A DNA stretch of 43,910 nt. Source: a virus. The stretch is from positions 1 through 43,910 of the IMG/VR virus record IMGVR_UViG_2513237162_000001; one strand, given 5' to 3'. The translations under genes were made by a program, and so were the position numbers. Under the pieces are notes generated by a model. It saw only the letters and a program-made list of their open reading frames with translations. It searched no databases and had not been told where the DNA came from. This document shows, piece after piece, positions 20,384 through 35,689 of this stretch; the stretch's first letter is position 1; the number at the start of each line of letters is the position of its first letter.

Positions 20384-20620
20384 CTATGCAGGAGCTCCTT
20401 TCCGGGGCTGATTGGCTTCACTCACAAGAGCGTTGAGCTTCGTCCGGAAATTCTTGATGGCGCGCGCCTCGGCCGCATAGGCTGCGCGCTTCACATCATC
20501 TTTTGGGTCTGCGAAAATGCAGGCGTTGACGGCCGCAAGCTCCATTTCGTCCCAAAGGACGTGAAACAGCGGCGTATCGAGCAGAGAGCGGGCCTGAACA
20601 ACCTTTTCGGCTTCGGTCAT
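20384..20620 (-). CDS. Hypothetical protein
   Basis: From the ORF track. Its start overlaps the portal stop. Confidence 0.6.
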   Translation of the reverse strand: MTEAEKVVQARSLLDTPLFHVLWDEMELAAVNACIFADPKDDVKRAAYAAEARAIKNFRTKLNALVSEANQPRKGAPA

Positions 20621-22722
20621 CCTGGCTCTCCGCCAACTTCAACCTGCGATGTCCTGGCGTTCGTGACCTGAGCATTCATCGCGATCTGGGCAACGCTCTG
20701 CTGGCGCTTCAAATCAAGCTCGGCAATGAGCTGCTCACGTTTCAGATCAAGCTCGCGATTCAACTGCTCCTGCTTGAGAGCGAATTCGCGGTTTATCCTC
20801 TCGGCCTCAAGCTGAGCATCGACCTGGTTTTGCTCCTGCTTGATCTGCGCATCCATCGTGGCCTTCGCCTTTTGAGCCTCGGCCTGAGCCTGCACCTTCT
20901 GAAGCTCCGGATTTGGCTGATTGGCAGCCGCTTCCATCTTGGCCTGGATCTCGGCCGGGTCTGGCTTGGTGAAATAAAGCTCTGTCGACCGGGCGCCGGC
21001 CGATTCCGCGAACTTCGATACCGCGTTGTAGACGTTGTCAGGCTTGACGAAGGGATTGTCGGCGCCAAGTGAGGCGAGCAGCTTTTCCTGCAGCCCGATC
21101 ACCTGCGTCATCATCATCATGTCGCGCTCACGGGTGCCGGCGCCGAGGCCGGTGTTCACCGTGGCGTCCATCTCGGCATTCCACTCGCGCGGATCGAACG
21201 TCACCCACTTGTTGCGGAGCCGGACCGTGCGCGGCTTGTCCTGATGCTTTACCACCATGCGCAGAAGGCCGCGGAATACTCGTTTAAGGCCATGAGCGAT
21301 GGTGCGGACCATCAATTCCGTCTGCCCGATGCCGGCCGCCTCGATCATTGCCGACGCCTTGGCCGTCATGTTCTGCAGCGCGTCCGGTGCTAGTCCGCTC
21401 GATGCTTCGCTGATGCCGGTACGATCCGCCGCTTCCTCATCCATATAGGAGAGCATGGCGAACGAGTCCTTGGCGACGAATGGCACATTGTTGAAGGCCA
21501 GCGCTGTCCTTGCGTCCGTGCCCTGAGAGATGCGGATCGGCAGGCCAAAGCGTGGGTTGAGCACAGCCTCAGGGTTGACGACTGTGCCTTCCTGGACGAT
21601 CGGCTGCGGGTTGTTCTGCCAATAGAGGTTATCCATGGTCTGACGGAGAAGCACCGTCTTGATCTTCTGGATGTCCTTCATGTCGTCAGTGACGGAATCG
21701 CCCTCGCGCTGATGCGGCCGGCGCTTGGCGATGATATCCGCGAAGGGAACCTCGTCCCAATCGTCGTTGGAGAGCAGGTTCTTGATCCCAACACCGCCGG
21801 CATAGACGATGCGCCTCAGTTCAGCGATGCCGTCGTCGTCTGCGTCCACCCTCACATAGAGTTCGTAGTATTCGATCTCCTGAAGGGCGCGCTGCGTCGA
21901 CTCGTCGTCATCGGCGATATCGCGGCGTCGGACGTATTCTTCCTCTTCCTTGTCAGTATCCGAGCCAGCAGCCGGGAGCTTGTCGATCTTATCGCGGTCA
22001 TAGCCCATTGCCACAAGATCAGAGCGACGAAGGCGCTGATTGATGCCGACGATCGGGCTTTCCTCGATATCGAGCGCATCCGGGTGAATGAGAAATTCCT
22101 CAAGAGGAACCGCGGCAAGCCTGGTGCAGCCATATTCCGATTTCTTCTTGATCTTCAGATTGTAGACAGGCTGCATGGTCATCTGACCATCCGGCGTCTG
22201 GATCTGCTCTTCCGATTGCTCCTGCTCCAGGACTTCGACGTCATCGTCCTGCACGAGCTGCACGACAGAATCTTCGTCGAGGCCGGTATGATCCGACACG
22301 GCGACCTTGATCTTCTTGTCGTACCACCAGCGGATAATGCCGTTGCGCAGCTTCAGCGCGTCATAGATCGCATCCTGCACCGCTTCATAGCCGGAAGACT
22401 CCGGGAAGACGATATAGTTGATGTAATCGCTGGCCTGCTCAGCCTTCTCCTCATCATCTTCGCCGACCGGTTCGTATTCGACGACCTTGTCGTTGCCGAG
22501 GATGACCCTGGTGACTGATGGCAGAACCTTGGTGATCGCTGAGCGCACGTCTCTAGACACGACGGACGAACGGTTGTCGTCGACCGGGACGTCCTTCATG
22601 ACGCCGTCGAAATATTCCATCGCTGTTACGCGATCCTTCGACAGTTCAGTCCGATAGTTCTCGCAATCCTTGACCAGCACCGAGACGATATTGGTCAGGC
22701 GCTCGTCGGTCATTTCCGCCAT
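20617..22722 (-). CDS. Portal protein
   Basis: The 701-aa product follows TerL. It has the N-terminal pattern RVTAMEYFDG...NRSSVVSRDVRSAITKVLPSVTRVI...VEYEP...AEQASDYINYIV. The C-terminus is a Gln/Glu/Ala-rich coiled coil, like a P22-type barrel. Confidence 0.85.
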   Translation of the reverse strand: MAEMTDERLTNIVSVLVKDCENYRTELSKDRVTAMEYFDGVMKDVPVDDNRSSVVSRDVRSAITKVLPSVTRVILGNDKVVEYEPVGEDDEEKAEQASDYINYIVFPESSGYEAVQDAIYDALKLRNGIIRWWYDKKIKVAVSDHTGLDEDSVVQLVQDDDVEVLEQEQSEEQIQTPDGQMTMQPVYNLKIKKKSEYGCTRLAAVPLEEFLIHPDALDIEESPIVGINQRLRRSDLVAMGYDRDKIDKLPAAGSDTDKEEEEYVRRRDIADDDESTQRALQEIEYYELYVRVDADDDGIAELRRIVYAGGVGIKNLLSNDDWDEVPFADIIAKRRPHQREGDSVTDDMKDIQKIKTVLLRQTMDNLYWQNNPQPIVQEGTVVNPEAVLNPRFGLPIRISQGTDARTALAFNNVPFVAKDSFAMLSYMDEEAADRTGISEASSGLAPDALQNMTAKASAMIEAAGIGQTELMVRTIAHGLKRVFRGLLRMVVKHQDKPRTVRLRNKWVTFDPREWNAEMDATVNTGLGAGTRERDMMMMTQVIGLQEKLLASLGADNPFVKPDNVYNAVSKFAESAGARSTELYFTKPDPAEIQAKMEAAANQPNPELQKVQAQAEAQKAKATMDAQIKQEQNQVDAQLEAERINREFALKQEQLNRELDLKREQLIAELDLKRQQSVAQIAMNAQVTNARTSQVEVGGEPG

Positions 22723-22811: not shown

Positions 22812-24173
22812 CTAAACAACTTTGCGAGCCTTGAAATTCCAGTTTGCGTCACCGCCATTGATGCGGGCAAAGCGCTTCATCATCAGCGCGTAACGCGATG
22901 CAGACAGCACGTCGTCGCGTTCCTTCACGACCTTGCCGTCCTTGCGATGGTAGAGCCTGAATTCCTCGAACCATTCCGAGCAGGTGTTGAACACCTTCCA
23001 GCGTCCCGTCACCATGCGATCCAGCATGTCCATCAATCCAGCCTCGACGCTGTTGCTTCCGTCGTCGAACGTGGCCCGCTCCTGCAGGAAGGGCATGCCT
23101 TGAGCCTTGTATTGCGATGCCAGGTTCTCACCGGCCGCCGTGTCGTTGTTGCCGTCGTGAGGCCATGCCCAAGGCATCCACAGCCCCCAAGGCTTCAGAG
23201 CCGCGGCGTGCGTGTGAACTGGCGCCTCTCTCTGGCGATAGACCTTGGTGACAAACATCACGTCGGCATCTCTGTCCCAGGCGAGACAGGCGGCTGCGGT
23301 CGGGTGATCCCAACCAAAATCGATGCCGGCGATCTGAACCCAATGCTTTGGAATGACGAAAGGCGTGACGCTCAGCAGTTCCTCAGCAACCGGGAAGATC
23401 CGGCCCGAGCCCAGCGACGGTATGCCCTTGGTTCTCGCTTCCCGCTCATGTGGCGGGTAGCTGTCTATGATCTTCTGCCGTTCTTCCGGCGTGTAGTGCT
23501 CCGCGTCGTCGATCGTCATCGTGATGACTTCGCGGTCTGGCGACTTTTCCAGGATGTAACGGGCGACCACCGTGCTCATGCCCTTGAGAGGTGTGAACGT
23601 GACGGCGATCAAACCGCGTGTCGCGTTGGTTCTGGTGATCCCTTCGAAATAAACATCCTCGGGGGGCTCTTCGTCGAACCAGACGAAATCAACCGTGTTG
23701 GCCTGCCACTTGCCGCGGCCCTGCTCATACGCCTTGAAGAGAAGCGTTGAAGCACCGCCGGTCACATGACGAACCGTGACGCTATCGAGAGCAGCAGAGA
23801 CACCCGAGCGCCGCGTGGTGGCGATGATGTCAGCTTTTGGAATGTAGCCTGTGCCCCATTCCTCCTCGCTCATCGGCGGCCCGATCAAAAGCCGCTGTAC
23901 GCCATCGCGTGTCAGCTCATACGATTCCGAGCCAGCCAGCATGACGATCGGCCGTTCGAAGCGCTTGCCTTGCCACCAATCAGGATATCGACCAGTGAGA
24001 TGCATTGCTGCTTCAGCAGCACCCGCAAGCGTCTTGCCAAGCTGGTTGCCTGCCATGAACAGCCGCTCACGGAAGAAGGCACCGGCTTCGTGAAATTCCT
24101 CCTGCTTCGAATAAGGCTGGTAAGACGAGAGGCGGTTAGTGCGCCGTCTCCGATCCAGTTCGGCCATCAGCAT
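22812..24173 (-). CDS. terL: Terminase large subunit
   Basis: It has a Walker A-like motif MAGNQLGKT. The track start is 24248. I prefer ATG 24173, which is preceded by AAGGAG-N6. It overlaps terS by 38 nt. Confidence 0.85.
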   Translation of the reverse strand: MLMAELDRRRRTNRLSSYQPYSKQEEFHEAGAFFRERLFMAGNQLGKTLAGAAEAAMHLTGRYPDWWQGKRFERPIVMLAGSESYELTRDGVQRLLIGPPMSEEEWGTGYIPKADIIATTRRSGVSAALDSVTVRHVTGGASTLLFKAYEQGRGKWQANTVDFVWFDEEPPEDVYFEGITRTNATRGLIAVTFTPLKGMSTVVARYILEKSPDREVITMTIDDAEHYTPEERQKIIDSYPPHEREARTKGIPSLGSGRIFPVAEELLSVTPFVIPKHWVQIAGIDFGWDHPTAAACLAWDRDADVMFVTKVYRQREAPVHTHAAALKPWGLWMPWAWPHDGNNDTAAGENLASQYKAQGMPFLQERATFDDGSNSVEAGLMDMLDRMVTGRWKVFNTCSEWFEEFRLYHRKDGKVVKERDDVLSASRYALMMKRFARINGGDANWNFKARKVV

Positions 24174-24537
24174 CGCTTGCTCCTTGAGCATCGAGGAAAG
24201 GCCGGATTGCTGAATCGAGAGATCGGATGCGCTGGACAAGCTGGTCATCCGTCAGGTCGTCCATGTGGTTGATGTTGACGTTGAGATCCTTCGGCAGGAT
24301 CGAGGCGACGACCTTGAGATATTGGTCAGGTTTTTCTTCTCTGACCCTTGCAAGCGTTGCCACGCCATGATCCTGCCAATCGGCATAGAGATCACTGATG
24401 AACTGCTCACCGAGTTTGTTGCGGGCGCCTTTGGGCCGGCCACCGAATCCGCTATTCCCCGGTAGGAAGCGGCCTTTCTCATCCTTATCGACCAGACCGG
24501 CATTCTCTGCCTGATCCAATTCGCCGTCCTTGCTCAC
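24136..24537 (-). CDS. terS: Terminase small subunit (DUF5681-like)
   Basis: It has the motif GRFLPGNSGFGGRPKGARNK. The GTG start overlaps the upstream stop (GTGA). It lies directly upstream of terL. Confidence 0.6.
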   Translation of the reverse strand: MSKDGELDQAENAGLVDKDEKGRFLPGNSGFGGRPKGARNKLGEQFISDLYADWQDHGVATLARVREEKPDQYLKVVASILPKDLNVNINHMDDLTDDQLVQRIRSLDSAIRPFLDAQGASDADGRTGSETAH

Positions 24538-24862: not shown

Positions 24863-25384
24863 TCAGCCTTTGAGGTACAAGATAGCCGAGCTAAGGAAAG
24901 CAGGATTGTCTTTGAAGTGACCAAGCCCAAGATTACAGTGCCCACACAAGATCCCACGCACCCGGCCCGTCGTATGGCAATGGTCAATATTCCAGCCCTT
25001 GGATTTTGGTTTCTCTGTTGTGCCGCATACAGCGCATTTCGACCCTTGAGCCTCAAAGACTTTATCGAAATCAAAACTCGGGGAATTAATCCTCCTGAGG
25101 GCCTGCCGCCTGTTATACTCGGCGCGCTTCTCAGGGTTTTTAAGTCGCCACGCTTTCCCGGTCTCCGCTGCCTTCTCTCTGTTTTTACGCTTCGATTTGG
25201 CGAGCATTTCTTTGGTTTTATCCGGGTTTGCTTTGACCCACTCCCTGGATTTAGCTCGGTGAGCCTCAGGGTTAAGAGCGTATCGCTCTCGCGCCTTTGC
25301 CCTTGCTAGCTCTGGGTTTAAAGCACGCTTGAGGCGCGCCCGCAGCGCGTGAGCTGCTCTGCGTTCTTCGAGAGTTTGCGCCAT
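24863..25384 (-). CDS. Endonuclease VII family (T4 gp49-like HNH) nuclease
   Basis: It has the motif CAVCG...WNIDHCHTTGRVRGILCGHCNLGLGHFKDNPAFLSSAILYL. The N-terminus is basic and repeat-like. Confidence 0.8.
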   Translation of the reverse strand: MAQTLEERRAAHALRARLKRALNPELARAKARERYALNPEAHRAKSREWVKANPDKTKEMLAKSKRKNREKAAETGKAWRLKNPEKRAEYNRRQALRRINSPSFDFDKVFEAQGSKCAVCGTTEKPKSKGWNIDHCHTTGRVRGILCGHCNLGLGHFKDNPAFLSSAILYLKG

Positions 25385-29874: not shown

Positions 29875-30435
29875 CTAGAACCGAGCGAACTCTCCTTGGA
29901 GTCGCAATGCCGCTTCTCGGTAAGCGGCGGCAGCCATCTCTTTGTCTTTGAACCGTCCGATCGTGACGCACTTGCCTCGGTCTCTGATGGTCGCGCGCCA
30001 AGCCTTTTCGCCGGCGTGCCAGCAGACGCCCTTCAAGCCACTCTTGTTGTTGGATCTCAAACCTGTGTTCCAAGTGCTCTGGAGAGGTGTCGCCCCGCGA
30101 AGGTTACCGGGCCTGTTAGCCAGAGTGTTTCCGTTGGCGTGGTCAACGATTCTGGGGACTTCAACGAGATCAATCCTGTTGAAGATGGCAAAGACAATTC
30201 TGTGGCACCGAAGGTTACGGTCCCCAACACTGACCATGGCCCTCGTAAACTTTCCGTCCTTGCAAAGACAGCCGGCAACTTTCCCAGCGTAGAGCTTGTT
30301 CCACCCAACGGCGCCGGTCGAGCCTTTCGCGAAATGCCAATCGGGCCTTGTCTTCCAAATAAGGGCGCCGCTGACCGTGTCGAGCTCGAAGCATTCGCTC
30401 AGATATTCAAAAGTGAAATCGCTCAGTTGCATCAT
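29875..30435 (-). CDS. HNH endonuclease with C-terminal AP2 DNA-binding domain (copy 1)
   Basis: It has the motif CHRIVFAIFN...IVDHANGNTLANRPGNLR...NNKSGLKGVCWH...KAWRATI...IGRFKDKEMAAAAYREAA...GEFA. Confidence 0.8.
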   Translation of the reverse strand: MMQLSDFTFEYLSECFELDTVSGALIWKTRPDWHFAKGSTGAVGWNKLYAGKVAGCLCKDGKFTRAMVSVGDRNLRCHRIVFAIFNRIDLVEVPRIVDHANGNTLANRPGNLRGATPLQSTWNTGLRSNNKSGLKGVCWHAGEKAWRATIRDRGKCVTIGRFKDKEMAAAAYREAALRLQGEFARF

Positions 30436-30558: not shown

Positions 30559-30741
30559 TCAGCTTTGGGAGATTGAGAGGCTGCCGGGGTGGGAAAAGGC
30601 GAGTTGGATGCCCTCAGCTAGCGCAGCCTCTAGCTCACGATCTGCTGATGGATAGTTCTGGTCGATGTGGCGCTTGAACCACCGGGCGAACGCGACAACT
30701 GTGATCGGGGTGAGGATTATGGCTGCCAAAACGTAGATCAT
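30559..30741 (-). CDS. Small membrane protein
   Basis: The 60-aa product has an N-terminal TM helix (IYVLAAIILTPITVVAFARWF). Its start overlaps the upstream stop. Confidence 0.5.
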   Translation of the reverse strand: MIYVLAAIILTPITVVAFARWFKRHIDQNYPSADRELEAALAEGIQLAFSHPGSLSISQS

Positions 30742-31271
30742 GCCGGTACTCCCGTGCGGGTTTTGTTGGTGGTCGAAAGGCGACCGTATTCGCCGTGATA
30801 CTTTATAGATCCGGCGTCATAAGCTTCCGCCGCCTTCTCAGGCGTGTCGAAATAACCGAGAGAGTGGTGCTTTCTATCTACTCGGATCTGCGCAACCCAT
30901 AGACCCTTGGCTTTGTGCCAGGAGACGCCCTTGAAGCCACTCGTGTTGTTCTTCGCTGGCCCTTGGTTACGACTATTGAGCGCCGCAGATGTGACCCGAA
31001 GGTTGCAGAAACGATTGTCTGCCCTGACGCAATTTATGTGATCAACAACACCGACTGGCCATCGGCCTGTCATCAAGAGGAAGGCCAAGCGATGAGCCTT
31101 GTAATACTTGCGGTTAATCCCGATAACGATGTAGCCATAATAGCAAACAGTGCCAGCTCTAGCCCCTGTGGGGGTTCTCTGGGATGTGTTAACTTTCCAG
31201 AAAAATTCACCGGTTTCGGCGTCGTACCGTAGGACTTTGGAGACATCTTCAAATGAATGATCACCCATCAC
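30738..31271 (-). CDS. HNH endonuclease with C-terminal AP2 DNA-binding domain (copy 2)
   Basis: It has the motif AHRLAFLLMTG...VVDHINCVRADNRFCNLR...NNTSGFKGVSWH...LWVAQI...LGYFDTPEKAAEAYD...GEYG. It overlaps its neighbours at both ends (ATGA). Confidence 0.8.
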   Translation of the reverse strand: MMGDHSFEDVSKVLRYDAETGEFFWKVNTSQRTPTGARAGTVCYYGYIVIGINRKYYKAHRLAFLLMTGRWPVGVVDHINCVRADNRFCNLRVTSAALNSRNQGPAKNNTSGFKGVSWHKAKGLWVAQIRVDRKHHSLGYFDTPEKAAEAYDAGSIKYHGEYGRLSTTNKTRTGVPA

Positions 31272-32143: not shown

Positions 32144-32353
32144 TCATGCTGCGGTTGCCTTGCGACGATGTTCGCGCATGAAAATGCGAACCTTATCAGC
32201 CGTTTCTGGCCAGACGCGCTTACCCTCCCGGAGCCGTTTGACCAGCTCGGAATTCCCAGATGCGGCCTTGCCAAAATAGGAAGGCCCCATCTCCGTTTCG
32301 CGGAGGAAGTCATTGACTTCGGAAAGCAGTTTTTCGGAAAGATTTGTTGCCAT
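32144..32353 (-). CDS. Cro-like early regulator (first gene of the minus-strand early operon)
   Basis: ATG 32353 lies 7 nt after a minus-strand CTTGAC-N17-TATAGT promoter, so the leader is absent or very short. It is divergent from the XRE repressor gene. The family itself was not recognised. Confidence 0.5.
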   Translation of the reverse strand: MATNLSEKLLSEVNDFLRETEMGPSYFGKAASGNSELVKRLREGKRVWPETADKVRIFMREHRRKATAA

Positions 32354-32360
32354 GTCGCTG

Positions 32361-32435
32361 ACTATATCCTCTTTAGCGGACACGTCAAGCATCCTCTATG
32401 AAGGACGTGCGAAAATATCTGATTTAGAGGATATT
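32361..32435. promoter_or_regulatory. Divergent genetic switch: three 16-bp operators plus the cro-side and repressor-side promoters
   Basis: The operators are ATCCTCTTTAGCGGAC (32366..32381), ATCCTCTATGAAGGAC (32391..32406) and ATCTGATTTAGAGGAT (32417..32432), spaced 25-26 bp centre to centre. The minus-strand promoter has its -35 at 32384..32389 and its -10 at 32361..32366. The + strand -10-like GATATT lies at 32430..32435, 6 nt before ATG 32442. Confidence 0.65.
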
Positions 32436-32441
32436 GCAGCC

Positions 32442-32747
32442 ATGGCAGACGAAGCATGGCGAAAGCGTCTAGAGGACGCGCTTAAAAACTCGAACCGATC
32501 CAAGCGGGAGATATCTCTCAAGGCTGGGAAAGGCGCGGGCTATGTTCACTCTATCCTGAGTGAGGGGAAAGACCCGACGATTGAAAGCCTCATAGCGGTT
32601 TGCCAGGAGCTGGGCGTCAGCCTCACTTGGATTGTTTATGGATTCGAAATTTCCCCGGCGACTGAACAGCTTCTTTCCCTGATCGAGCAGAACCCCGATG
32701 ATCGAGCGGCTGTGTTGCAGATCCTGCAGAAGCGAGAAAAGGCTTAA
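32442..32747 (+). CDS. XRE-family HTH repressor (cI-like, no peptidase domain)
   Basis: ATG 32442 opens ORF 32313..32747. The HTH reads SKREISLKAGKGAGYVHSILSEGKDPTIESLIAVCQELGVSLTWIVYG. Confidence 0.7.
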   Translation: MADEAWRKRLEDALKNSNRSKREISLKAGKGAGYVHSILSEGKDPTIESLIAVCQELGVSLTWIVYGFEISPATEQLLSLIEQNPDDRAAVLQILQKREKA

Positions 32748-32876
32748 CCTCGTCGACGACGGACCTCTTCTCTTCCTCACTCATATCGTCTAGGATGCTT
32801 CGCAGCCTTGACACACGCATTGGTATTTCTCCCGCCACGATTGTTAGGAATGTTTTCTTAGTGTGGGTCATTTTCG

Positions 32877-32892
32877 CAGCTTGCGCAAGCTG
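32877..32892. repeat. Perfect 16-bp palindrome CAGCTTGCGCAAGCTG
   Basis: Read directly from the sequence. It lies in the noncoding stretch after the repressor gene. Confidence 0.6.
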
Positions 32893-32974
32893 GATTAGGA
32901 ACCTAGTCCGTACGCTTTCGGACTCGAACCTAATTTGTACACGTTCTCAGTGAATGCGACCAAGCTAATTTTGC

Positions 32975-32988
32975 AGAGGATATCCTCT
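32975..32988. repeat. Perfect palindrome AGAGGATATCCTCT (two operator half-sites fused back to back)
   Basis: The halves AGAGGAT and ATCCTCT match the right and left operator halves, but in GGAT-ATCC order with no spacer. Confidence 0.6.
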
Positions 32989-33017
32989 TAGGAATTAGGG
33001 TAAAGAAATGACAAAGG

Positions 33018-33692
33018 TCAGTTTCTAAGGAGGCGGAGGCCAGCATCGATAGGTTCGGGGCGGTGATCTGTCTCGTCCCACGCGCCTTTTCCTTGGTTGC
33101 ACTCTGCACATAAAACCTGGAGATTCGATCGATCAAGACGAAGATGCCAATGATGGTGAAGCGGCTTGATATGATCGACAACGATCTGGACGCGTGAGCC
33201 GGTCATGTCCAAATGCTTAGGAGTAGCACCGCAGCACATGCAAATCGAACCATGCTCTTTCAGGACTTCCATCCTAAGTTTGCGCCAATCCCAAGATTTA
33301 TAGAATTCGTCCTTTTGGTCTTTGGAGGGGACATATTCCTTTTTCGTCAGGCGCTCCAAAAACTGCTCGTTTTCGGCGTTTAGCCTATCCATTATTTTAT
33401 TCCGGACGGCCCTTTGCGGGGCGCCTCGATATTCCTTCTGCATTTTCCGGCGCTGCTGTCTGCTTATGTTATCGATCAAGACGCTCGCAGCGTTGATCAT
33501 GCCTTCCTGCGTGGGAAAGCGCGCGATCTTGCGCTGGTAAATCGCTTCTAGGAGGTCCCAGAATTCCAGCTCGGTTTTTATCTCTCGGACTTTAACCCCG
33601 GCCGCGTTCAGGTAGCATTCCAGCGATGTGAGGCGTTTTTTGCCTTCGACGCTCAGATTCTTCATGCTGAAACCGTATTTATCTTTAGCCAT
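33018..33692 (-). CDS. HNH endonuclease with an unassigned ~130-aa N-terminal region
   Basis: The C-terminus reads FYKSWDWRKLRMEVLKEHGSICMCCG...IVVDHIKPLHHHW...NLQVLCAECNQGKG. Hand counts over the gene give about 45-55% GC. Confidence 0.8.
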   Translation of the reverse strand: MAKDKYGFSMKNLSVEGKKRLTSLECYLNAAGVKVREIKTELEFWDLLEAIYQRKIARFPTQEGMINAASVLIDNISRQQRRKMQKEYRGAPQRAVRNKIMDRLNAENEQFLERLTKKEYVPSKDQKDEFYKSWDWRKLRMEVLKEHGSICMCCGATPKHLDMTGSRVQIVVDHIKPLHHHWHLRLDRSNLQVLCAECNQGKGAWDETDHRPEPIDAGLRLLRN

Positions 33693-33858
33693 TGTACTTC
33701 TTAACCCTTATCCAACGACTAGGCTCTAAGCAACGAACGTAGTAATCCCTTGCGGTCGGAAAGAGATCCGACCCAAGGAACTACGTGTCTTCATCCACTC
33801 GACTGAGTATCTTAAGTTTCCGACACGTATCCACGGCTCACCATATGACGGTGATTAC

Positions 33859-34182
33859 TTGTCCGCTTCATGCTGGTATTTCTATAGGCCCAAGAAGCCT
33901 GAAATCACTGACCGGGTTACCAGCCCCGTGGTGCATATTGTCAGCCCTTTACCACCGTCATTCCGGTAGACACGATATATTACGGTCCCGCCTAGCACCT
34001 TTACCCACGTCGCAGCGCCAACCGAAACCTAACGGCGCGGGCATCACCGGATAAAATTCTAGGAGGAGATTGAAAAGGTAAGAGCGTTACGTTATAACAG
34101 TCTTACTGGTTCTTCTCGTCAAAGAATTCTCACCAGTCACCGCCCCGGCTCTCGTAAAAGAGCGCGGGGCATTTCTTTGTTG
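33859..34182 (+). ncRNA. Candidate ~290-nt noncoding RNA (promoter-like element to intrinsic terminator)
   Basis: TTGTCC (33859..33864)-N17-CTATAG (33882..33887) is promoter-like. No credible ORF is present. An SD-like AGGAGGAG lies at 34061..34068. The terminator lies at 34142..34182. There is no experimental or covariation support. Confidence 0.3.
34142..34182 (+). terminator. Intrinsic terminator, + strand
   Basis: GCCCCGGCTCT-CGTAAA-AGAGCGCGGGGC forms 11 bp with one bulge. It is followed by ATTTCTTTGTTG. Confidence 0.65.
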
Positions 34183-34215
34183 TACTCTCCTCTCAAAATC
34201 GATTCAAGAAAAATC

Positions 34216-34265
34216 GTCCTCTATAAAGGATGGAGCTTGTGTGTGTCCTCATTAGAGGATATATT
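34216..34265 (+). promoter_or_regulatory. Early + strand promoter with two operators (PL/OL analogue)
   Basis: The promoter is TTGTGT (34237..34242)-N17-TATATT (34260..34265). The operator GTCCTCATTAGAGGAT (34245..34260) fills the spacer. A second operator, GTCCTCTATAAAGGAT, lies at 34216..34231. Confidence 0.6.
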
Positions 34266-34293: not shown

Positions 34294-34500
34294 ATGGAAT
34301 ATATGGAATCTCAGATGCAGCAGCGGTACGACGCCTACAACGACGCCCTGAAGCATGCGGAGGATCTCGTTGCCGAACTTCTTAATGCCCTCAAACTTGC
34401 TGAGGCGGTCTATCGGAAAAATGTAGTCGCTCCAGGCGAGCCATCATCTGTCCTCGACGCAATGCAAGCTGCGATCTCCAAGGCAGAGGGCAGGTCATGA
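34294..34500 (+). CDS. Hypothetical protein (first early gene)
   Basis: From the ORF track. GAGGAAA lies upstream of the ATG. Confidence 0.6.
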   Translation: MEYMESQMQQRYDAYNDALKHAEDLVAELLNALKLAEAVYRKNVVAPGEPSSVLDAMQAAISKAEGRS

Positions 34501-34778
34501 GCTACTCAAATTTGTCCGATTTCGATCTGGCCTCACTACTCCACGAAACCATGGAGCGCCACGACAGGCTGATCGATAGCGCTCCGATGGGCGACGAGCG
34601 CATCTATTTCGCCAACAAGAAGTGCGACGAAATCAGCGCGGAACAACGACGGAGAGGATACGAGGCCTGCCCTAAGTGCTTCGACTTCGGAGACATCGAA
34701 GATGACGAAACCGGTCACTACTGCGATTGCGTCATGGGTGACCGTCTCAAGGAAAAGAGGAGCCGCCGCCGTGGCTGA
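34497..34778 (+). CDS. Hypothetical protein with Cys cluster
   Basis: From the ORF track. It has CPKC...CDC. Its start overlaps the previous stop. Confidence 0.6.
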   Translation: MSYSNLSDFDLASLLHETMERHDRLIDSAPMGDERIYFANKKCDEISAEQRRRGYEACPKCFDFGDIEDDETGHYCDCVMGDRLKEKRSRRRG

Positions 34779-35085
34779 AACCATCAGCGAGATCCGCAAG
34801 CGGGCATGGAAGACGCGCCGCGAGAAATACGGCTCCCTCGGGCACAACGGCTCTTACACCCGTTCTCCCGGCCCCTGTGCAGCATGTGACCGTATGCGGG
34901 CCGTCCTCGTCCGTCTTCATGTCGAAGGCGTACTAAGCGAAGGGCAAGTTGCAAAGGCGACGGGGATGTACCGCGTCGATGTCCGCAAGGCCGCTGATGA
35001 ATACGGCGAAACGCTTCCAGAAGAGCAGTCGCTACGTGAGGCTATCGGTCTCGGCATCGGTGGCCGAGGCGTTGCTGAATACTAG
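34771..35085 (+). CDS. Hypothetical protein
   Basis: GTG 34771 lies in frame in ORF 34702..35085 and overlaps the previous stop. Confidence 0.5.
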   Translation: MAETISEIRKRAWKTRREKYGSLGHNGSYTRSPGPCAACDRMRAVLVRLHVEGVLSEGQVAKATGMYRVDVRKAADEYGETLPEEQSLREAIGLGIGGRGVAEY

Positions 35086-35100
35086 TCTCGGAATAGATTT

Positions 35101-35152
35101 ATCCTCGATAGCGGATATTTCCATTGACAGTATCCTCTAAAGCGGATAGAAG
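35101..35152 (+). promoter_or_regulatory. Second repressor-controlled + strand promoter inside the early region
   Basis: The promoter is TTGACA (35124..35129)-N17-TAGAAG (35147..35152). The operator ATCCTCTAAAGCGGAT (35132..35147) sits in the spacer. A second operator, ATCCTCGATAGCGGAT (35101..35116), lies upstream. This is the same architecture as at 34216..34265. Confidence 0.5.
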
Positions 35153-35338
35153 AGAGTGGCAAGCAACGAACCGAGACGAACATCTCCAACACGGAGGGCG
35201 TCATGTAGATCGCAGCACGGGGCGTGCGTCCGTCGGGACAAACCTACGAGCTGGCCGGGCAGATAGAACCCCGGAGTAGATAGTTGGACTTTTAGATCGG
35301 TGTTCCTGAGCAAGAACGGAAAAGGCTCATCAGATTTC

Positions 35339-35389
35339 ACCCAGACCGCCACTGCGGATCATCTGGAAACCGGGGATGAGGACGAAATG
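35339..35389 (+). repeat. Copy A of a ~50-nt leader element ending at a start codon
   Basis: ACCCAGACCGCCACTGCGGATCATCTGGAAACCGGGGATGAGGACGAAATG. The 22-nt core CTGCGGATCATCTGGAAACCGG is identical to 36738..36759. Confidence 0.75.
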
Positions 35390-35689
35390 GACCACGGCAT
35401 TCTGAATACTTCCCTGAAGTCTCGCGGCAACATCGACAACCAAATCGATGCCTACAAGTCGCAGGTAGCGGCAGCGAAGAAAGCTAAGGCAAAGGCAGAC
35501 CGGGCTTCCTTCGTTGCCAACCAGAAAGCCGCCAAGGCTCTCCTCGCATCAGTTTCTGATGAACGCATGTCCGCTCTTGCTGAGCGCGTAAAGCAACCGG
35601 TTGCAGCGCTCCGCAAGCGCCTTGCTTCCGAGAGCCACTGGAACCCCACCATGATCATCAAACTGTTCTCCGCCTCGGAGGCTGCGTGA
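35387..35689 (+). CDS. Hypothetical coiled-coil protein
   Basis: ATG 35387 is in frame in ORF 35300..35689. It sits at the same offset from the repeat as the gene at 36770. Confidence 0.55.
   Translation: MDHGILNTSLKSRGNIDNQIDAYKSQVAAAKKAKAKADRASFVANQKAAKALLASVSDERMSALAERVKQPVAALRKRLASESHWNPTMIIKLFSASEAA

Follow-up and report, generated by a model that had tools for sequence, protein, structure and literature searches.

In phage lambda, the space between the repressor gene cI and the left operator and early promoter (OL/PL) carries rexAB, which are transcribed together with cI, from the same strand, in lysogens, and which do not encode a nuclease. A terminator, t-imm, stands at the far end of this space. 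Cis-acting leader RNAs and switches built on convergent transcription are known from other phages, e.g. the put RNAs of HK022, pR/pL of phage 186 and the CI RNA of P4. Phage HNH nucleases of the GVE2 and HK97 gp74 type are packaging proteins of about 100–130 amino acids that adjoin terminase and act late. Beyond the enterobacterial models, little is understood of the genetic switches of temperate phages. Here we describe the cI-OL/PL-like slot of a further temperate phage, IMG/VR record IMGVR_UViG_2513237162_000001, of which all 43,910 nucleotides (nt) were analysed (hereafter the window). The slot, at 32748-34215, holds the gene of a two-domain HNH nuclease and, directly upstream of it, a large structured RNA, both on the minus strand. 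Operator clusters flank it, so that it does extend from the repressor gene to the left operator and early promoter, as the original prediction for this region had it. The features on which that prediction was built are confirmed, and its interpretation is supported in part.

The reading that we prefer, with a probability of roughly 45%, is that the RNA and the nuclease form an early lytic unit, transcribed in the direction of cro and held down in the lysogen, rather than an exclusion gene that the lysogen expresses. Of the two components, the RNA is the more interesting part of the locus.

A structured RNA upstream of the nuclease gene

Outside the nuclease gene the slot has no credible open reading frame (ORF). 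The original prediction was right in this but missed a conserved structured RNA in the remainder. This RNA is about 310 nt long, has at least 11 helices and occupies 33688..34002 on the minus strand, where it ends at the nuclease start codon. Its family has no entry in Rfam 15 and good support from covariation.

In the related locus L030 (the loci that we compared are cited by such handles), the ~300 nt upstream of the nuclease start are 90.5% identical to those of the window, against 66% for the nucleotides of the nuclease coding sequence. The conserved block is also found upstream of the more distant nuclease genes of L065 and L066 and in metagenome contigs (motif pattern). RNAalifold predicts 53 base pairs from seven sequences, 21 of them with compensatory changes, and a covariance model made from this alignment detects the RNA at full length in three loci that are not part of the seed. 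At 33688-34002 the score of covariance model R1 is 288 bits. A first, stricter motif scan of IMG/VR returned no instance of the RNA; a looser scan with a three-part pattern, followed by the covariance model, returned 12 further instances in IMG/VR phage contigs. The family now comprises 22 distinct instances, with pairwise identities to the window that fall to 37–67%.

Across these 22 sequences, 90.9% of the cells in paired columns are paired, as against 33–43% when the partners are slid by one to three columns, and both partners have changed in 33 of the 53 pairs. Such figures are inflated because the alignment is fitted to the model; 15 of the 22 sequences, however, lie outside the seed alignment. 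Not one of 500 shuffles reaches the observed values on four of the five measures used, the covariation score among them. The helix cells contain 80 G-U and five A-C combinations, so the RNA is on the nuclease-sense (minus) strand. All 22 sequences have a 3′ hairpin of about 20 base pairs (bp), with stem sequences that are unrelated.

These observations bear on the idea that the 310-bp block acts as DNA, e.g. as a protein-binding array, an origin or a recombination site. The block does lie in a regulatory region, and its invariant short motifs, CGTCATATGG and AGTCG (which occurs twice), could be protein sites. But the excess of G-U over A-C is strand-specific pairing, the long 3′ hairpin is kept by every sequence despite its unrelated stems, and the paired fraction collapses once the partners are slid by a single column. 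We therefore consider a DNA element extremely improbable.

No Rfam 15 family matches the element, either in the window (E ≤ 10) or in five other loci (E ≤ 5); the matches listed are all weak and lie outside it. A blastn search with the RNA against 50,697 phage genomes gave no match, and ARAGORN found no tRNA or tmRNA in the region. Neither the RNA nor the position of the nuclease is described in the literature that we searched. Two candidate features of the RNA were set aside. Its long 3′ hairpin is not put forward as an intrinsic terminator, the tail being CGUUUCC and not a run of U; nor do we claim that helix 9 and the foot of the 3′ hairpin form a switch, as the fitted alignment gives them an overlap of only ~3 nt.

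The two-domain nuclease and its place at the switch

The nuclease gene (33018..33692, minus strand) is intact and encodes 224 amino acids, in agreement with the original prediction. Judged by its sequence, the product is a bona fide HNH superfamily protein, with a helical N-terminal domain (residues 1–120) and a C-terminal HNH domain (about 120–215). The latter matches Pfam HNH (PF01844) over residues 151–203 with E = 6e-8 and 33.1 bits, against a cut-off of 21.4, and the HNH families 144, 5956 and 589 of PHROG with E-values down to 8e-19. The zinc cysteines C151, C154, C195 and C198 are invariant in 26 homologues, as are D173-H174, N190 and N199. The nearest solved structure is the HNH protein of phage GVE2 (5h0m), found with a profile E-value of 7e-14 and at rank 1 with Foldseek (E = 5e-4), and the AlphaFold models have predicted local distance difference test (pLDDT) values of 88.5 and 88.8. 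Among 5.8 billion proteins, 480 relatives were found; many of these are full-length, with ~40% identity. In their alignment the N-terminal 100–120 amino acids are moderately conserved, the linker is variable and the HNH domain is very conserved.

The N-terminal domain is an orphan, and the earlier statement that this part could not be assigned holds. It is modelled confidently as three helices plus one long helix, and this N-terminal model has no fold match in PDB or BFVD with Foldseek; the full-length model matches entries of the same two databases only in the HNH core. Residues 1–120 belong to no Pfam, PHROG or PADLOC family, with a single PHROG match below threshold (E = 0.0097), and phmmer with this domain against 1.84 billion representatives found one relative. 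The novelty of the nuclease lies in an HNH domain joined to an orphan N-terminal domain and in its switch-linked position.

This position became apparent from about 25 genomic contexts of nuclease relatives, which fall into three layouts. All of them are at a genetic switch and, wherever cro is visible, the nuclease gene is oriented as cro. In the first layout, shared by the window, L030, L034, L062 and L063, a leftward early recombination operon is followed by a gap of ~430–600 nt, the rightward nuclease gene, a leftward repressor gene and a rightward cro. The nuclease of L030 is 74% identical to that of the window. The repressor of the window has no relation to those of L034 and L062, which are of S24 type, or to that of L063, an ORF without a Pfam match. 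In the second and commonest layout (L036, L061, L064 and the annotated Microcystis phage Mae-JY35), a leftward repressor gene is followed by a rightward cro-like gene and then by the nuclease gene, often with overlapping stop and start codons; in L064 only a small ORF is visible upstream of the nuclease. About 12 of 14 further viral and genomic loci have this arrangement, judged by the layout of their ORFs. Pfam assigns HTH_3 to eight of the 12 divergent ORFs upstream, five of which also have Peptidase_S24. Of 12 small ORFs, 11 of them located immediately upstream of the nuclease in relatives and one the cro-like ORF of the window, four match HTH_3, two YdaS and two P22_Cro. The third layout has a long leader with the nuclease as its first gene (L065, L066 and L067); L037, where it stands at the contig end, was grouped here.

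The cassette is common to otherwise unrelated phages with non-homologous neighbour genes, and its place relative to the switch is kept beside non-homologous repressors, of short helix-turn-helix (HTH) as well as S24 type. A nuclease family that is tied to the switch and cro-oriented next to unrelated repressors suggests a conserved early function. As most relatives directly follow cro in a repressor-controlled operon, this dominant position argues, at the level of gene order, for early lytic expression and against a rex-like function.

An ordinary explanation for the locus is that the gene is a free-standing homing endonuclease in a permissive intergenic spot, with upstream DNA that is a recently exchanged mosaic. 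The slot is the lowest-GC region of the window: its content of G and C (GC) is 49.4%, against 57.9% for the whole window, which puts it within the lowest 0.5% of windows of the same size (the minimum starts at 32841). A low-GC island had been called here before, correctly, albeit against a figure of 65% for the structural genes that is too high, as 1-kb bins across the window reach at most 63% and the baseline is 58%. Window and L030 have little in common beyond the immunity module. The genome also carries two other homing-type genes, which lie in the leftward early operon. These genes, 30738-31271 and 29875-30435, both on the minus strand, combine HNH_3 with AP2, are typical of the free-standing homing endonucleases and encode members of PHROG 99 (E = 7e-69 and 1e-47), a family other than that of the slot nuclease. 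No DNA-binding module of the AP2, NUMOD or IENR-like kind is fused to the slot nuclease according to Pfam, PHROG and fold searches, and its N-terminal domain matches no Pfam family, homing-type modules included. A position at the switch that is kept next to non-homologous repressors is a poor fit to site-specific homing, and recent exchange cannot explain upstream DNA that keeps its base-pairing at 37–67% identity in 22 sequences. Since all examined contexts lie at a genetic switch, the relatives are not scattered like ordinary homing endonucleases, a pattern that the original prediction would have held against itself. We regard the homing explanation as unlikely.

The original prediction placed the gene in a rex-equivalent slot as an exclusion, abortive-infection or toxin-like nuclease that the lysogen expresses or keeps poised. 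The slot is indeed equivalent to the rex position, the unit has a candidate promoter region to itself, next to the left operator, and an antisense arrangement could restrain a toxic gene. There is also a weak likeness to the HNH domains of the Septu PtuB type, seen with PADLOC and with Foldseek (8eea). The PADLOC matches, the best with E = 2.4e-7, are confined to the HNH core and generic to HNH domains, and ORFs and PADLOC revealed neither a PtuA-like ATPase gene in the slot nor any known defence or toxin-antitoxin partner gene; the RNA is not a tandem-repeat antitoxin. Furthermore, repressor and nuclease genes occupy opposite strands, which is not the case for cI and rexAB, and most homologues are inside a cro operon. 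A toxin-antitoxin or known defence module finds no backing in these results, and an exclusion function expressed by the lysogen appears quite improbable.

A third possibility is a displaced packaging cofactor of the HK97 gp74 or GVE2 type that aids DNA cutting by terminase. Besides the structural match to GVE2, there are tblastn matches to HNH genes that Staphylococcus phages carry at their genome ends, e.g. orf63 of PVL, and one PHROG match is annotated as a terminase small subunit. But the nuclease gene is 8.8 kb from the gene for the terminase large subunit (22812-24248, minus strand), and terminase was adjacent in none of the ~25 contexts. The slot nuclease has an extra domain of 120 amino acids that the small packaging enzymes lack. 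An endonuclease VII-like gene (24863-25384, minus strand) is already present beside the packaging genes, directly upstream of them, which is the usual position of a packaging nuclease. We give this possibility a very low probability.

Variable cargo and proposed convergent transcription

The preferred reading, an early lytic unit led by the RNA, treats the slot as two separable modules of one leftward transcription unit that would run in the cro direction and converge on the repressor gene. The first module is the RNA and the second a cargo gene, here the two-domain HNH DNA nuclease. RNA and nuclease are separate modules because the cargo varies and because L039 and L014 place the two apart.

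The RNA is found between the left operator and the repressor gene, at whose 3′ end it is directed, whether the nuclease is present or not. It is followed by the two-domain nuclease in the window, L030, L065 and L066, where gene and upstream non-coding DNA travel together as the cassette that the original prediction had envisaged. In L068 and L082 (by profile) and in L076 (by eye), the RNA is followed by a protein with a weakly similar N-terminal region and no HNH domain, in L071 and L074 by unrelated small proteins, and in L044, a Mesorhizobium chromosome, by an HNH protein with a different N-terminus. Where there is no cargo (L081, L075, L080, L084, L039, L014 and L083), a convergent XRE-type repressor-like ORF follows within ~35–460 nt; inspected by eye, at least ten of 17 loci with enough sequence have such an ORF downstream of the RNA. 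The order is RNA, antisense repressor, cro and nuclease in L039 and L014, and RNA, antisense repressor and cro in L075. L039 and L014 may therefore have RNA and nuclease on one potential transcript in the cro direction, with the repressor gene between them.

Those members of the family that are followed immediately by a cargo gene have in common a hairpin, ACUC-AGUC-GAGU, and a motif, GAGCCUAGUCGUUG, that directly precedes the ribosome-binding site; both hairpin and motif are absent where no cargo gene follows. In the window, the hairpin is at 33770-33781 and the GCCUAGUCGUUG motif at 33706-33719, both on the minus strand (alignment A10). The same tetranucleotide is found in the hairpin loop and in the motif before the start codon, and it changes together in both places, to AAUC in L072, AGUU in L082, GGUC in L076 and AGGA/UGGA in L044 and L074, so that five lineages carry AGUC, AAUC, AGUU, GGUC and AGGA/UGGA, respectively. 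Because the two sites vary in concert, these changes hint at a shared partner.

A further conserved module lies upstream of the RNA. In the window, a GC-rich hairpin followed by ATTTCTTTGTTG forms an intrinsic terminator of repressor sense at 34141..34182 on the plus strand (scan match at 34150-34169), and no convincing plus-strand terminator is found from 32747 to about 34140; the original prediction, which had reported none in this interval, is borne out. In nine other loci (L030, L039, L014, L065, L071, L072, L075, L078 and L082), a hairpin with another stem sequence and a T-tract stands at the same position, and L034 and L062, which lack the RNA, have terminator-like sites in the same relative place. 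With the repressor-sense terminator beyond the slot, it is plausible that read-through from the repressor gene is antisense to the nuclease gene, as had been proposed. The convergent layout, together with this terminator, predicts mutual antisense control of the repressor and the lytic transcript.

Between terminator and RNA lies a candidate promoter for the RNA and nuclease (34094..34137, minus strand), with TTGACG at 34122-34117, a spacer of 17 nt and TGTTAT at 34099-34094. It sits inside an inverted repeat, ACTGGT (34105-10) and ACCAGT (34132-37). The pattern TTGNCG-17-nGTTAT and its flanking repeat recur upstream of the RNA in L030, L039, L072, L075 and L078, and in L065, L071 and L082 the flanking repeat is replaced by GCAGG...CCTGC. 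At least ten instances have the terminator and then the inverted repeat around this pattern. A second candidate promoter, TTGAAT (34207-02), 17 nt and TACAAC (34184-79), is also on the minus strand. In L044, L076, L081, L073 and L080, the combination of terminator and inverted repeat is missing and a conserved motif, GAATGCCTACCYCGAAAGGGAYGGCCTCAC, is found ~60–130 nt upstream of the RNA instead.

The sequences show the gene, the fold and strand of the RNA, the operators, the terminator and the conserved positions; the start of transcription, the timing of expression and the role of the RNA we infer as follows. A promoter near 34094-34207, beside the left operator, would drive the RNA-led transcript towards the 3′ end of the repressor gene. 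In the lysogen, the unit would be kept down by repressor bound at the left operator and by antisense transcripts of the repressor gene that extend up to 34182. Upon induction or infection, the nuclease would be made from this transcript, which would continue into the repressor gene in antisense. For the RNA itself, a cis-acting role is probable, either as leader or as riboregulator. As nuclease relatives are found either here or directly after cro, both layouts would place them on the cro-direction early transcript.

Several points count against this proposal. Neither candidate promoter passes a strict sigma-70 scan. A promoter that is back-to-back with an operator could be activated by the repressor, lambda PRM being an example of such a promoter, and the unit could then be expressed in the lysogen. 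The long 3′ hairpin of the RNA could end transcription before the nuclease gene, though its tail lacks a run of U. Foldseek searches of PDB and BFVD and a phmmer search with the N-terminal domain yielded no hint of what the nuclease targets. Finally, L034, L062 and L063 have the same layout as the window and lack the RNA, so the RNA is not needed for the nuclease; the RNA model also has no match in L067, L036, L061, L064, L037 and Mae-JY35. In L034 (6528-7000), L062 (5555-6000) and L063 (5570-6000), a different upstream non-coding block is conserved, with 76% identity over 80–130 nt, and this may be a second type of leader.

A bolder version of the proposal concerns the RNA in its own right. 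The ~310-nt RNA could be a cis-acting riboregulator central to the lysis/lysogeny switch of one group of alphaproteobacterial temperate phages, either a processive antiterminator or a leader that senses a protein or ligand, which launches or licenses a transcript antisense through the repressor gene into cro; the nuclease would be just one of its interchangeable cargo genes. We put this forward tentatively and hold it to be rather unlikely. If true, the arrangement would be a mirror image of lambda PRE. If the RNA governs the conflict between repressor and lytic transcript, then it would be a new kind of RNA component in the lysis/lysogeny decision.

The switch region, its genome and known systems

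The window behaves as the complete genome of a temperate Rhizobium phage. Its portal and terminase region matches the Rhizobium phages RHEph18, RHph_N2 and RHph_N3_2 at ~85%, its right end matches annotated Rhizobium phage integrases (42786-43751), and the structural and late genes, among them the portal gene (20617-22722), are on the minus strand.

The repressor-like HTH protein is encoded at 32442..32747 on the plus strand. Its start is most likely the ATG at 32442, which gives 101 amino acids, although the longest ORF begins at 32313. It matches Pfam HTH_3 at 2e-6 and the PHROG transcriptional regulator or repressor families 8, 4 and 4268, and the Pfam profile search found no Peptidase_S24 domain in it. 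Divergent from it is the gene at 32144..32353 (minus strand; 69 amino acids in this version, the longest ORF starting at 32392), which by its position would be the cro-like first gene of a leftward lytic, PR-like operon; this ORF has no Pfam or PHROG match above noise. A sigma-70-like promoter, TTGACG-16-TATAGT (32388-32361, minus strand), is located just upstream of the internal ATG of the cro-like ORF. The site ends ~7 nt before this in-frame ATG (32353), which suggests that the cro-like mRNA is leaderless or nearly so.

Operator-like sites are 15-bp pseudo-palindromes, TCCTCT-N5-GGAY. The pattern TCCTCTNNNNNGGAY, with up to one mismatch, has 15 matches in the window, where 5.75 are expected. 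Three sites (32366-81, 32392-406 and 32417-31) form the right cluster at 32366..32431, between the repressor and cro-like genes, and two (34216-31 and 34245-60) form the left pair; the repeat families D3, I1 and I3 connect the two clusters. The second left operator exactly fills the spacer of a promoter-like site of the plus-strand early operon (TTGTGT at 34237-42, 17 nt, TATATT at 34260-65), and the operator and promoter region 34216..34265 is conserved in L030. The first gene of this PL-like operon is the ORF at 34294..34500 (plus strand), and the operon runs towards the integrase. A third operator-like pair (35101-16 and 35132-47) lies in the 215-nt gap between the operon ORFs 34702-35085 and 35300-35689, and suggests a further repressor-controlled promoter inside the operon at 35101-35147.

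Between the convergent nuclease and repressor genes, at 32975-32988, there is a perfect 14-bp palindrome, AGAGGATATCCTCT, which is the operator half-site in the opposite arrangement; its ATCCTCT half is kept in L030. A possible gene for 65 amino acids (32623..32820, minus strand) lies downstream of the nuclease gene, antisense to the 3′ end of the repressor gene. GGGAGAA, 7 nt upstream, is a good ribosome-binding site, and L030 retains the first residues, MRVSRL, in the form MRISRL, with synonymous changes. We found no PHROG family for it and annotate it tentatively as a gene.

How does this locus compare with the systems described at the outset? With the packaging nucleases of the GVE2 (5h0m) and HK97 gp74 type, the slot nuclease shares the C-terminal 100 amino acids, i.e. 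the FYxSxxW...R helix, the CxxC...CxxC zinc site and the DH...N...N core. Unlike these, it has an extra orphan domain of 120 amino acids and is encoded at the genetic switch, on a putative early-type transcript. McrA of E. coli (6ghc), a prophage-borne HNH restriction enzyme, has the same plan of an N-terminal domain, in McrA for recognition, and a C-terminal HNH domain, but only the HNH core aligns (60–63 columns, Foldseek E = 0.13), and the N-terminal model has no match in PDB and hence no sign of the domain with which McrA-type enzymes recognize modified cytosine; the label 'McrA' that the Joint Genome Institute (JGI) gives to many homologues is a generic COG name.

Lambda rexAB and other cargo between cI and OL/PL correspond to the slot nuclease in genomic position, with the repressor gene on one side and the left operators on the other, and the terminator at the far end of our slot resembles t-imm in place. 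In contrast to rexAB, the slot nuclease is encoded on the other strand and its gene runs towards the repressor gene; its relatives are usually in the cro operon. The likeness to the HK022 put RNAs, the 186 pR/pL system and the P4 CI RNA is of another kind: a promoter-proximal structured RNA in an immunity region, with transcription that converges on the repressor gene. The slot RNA has no relation to these in sequence or structure, and it is far larger.

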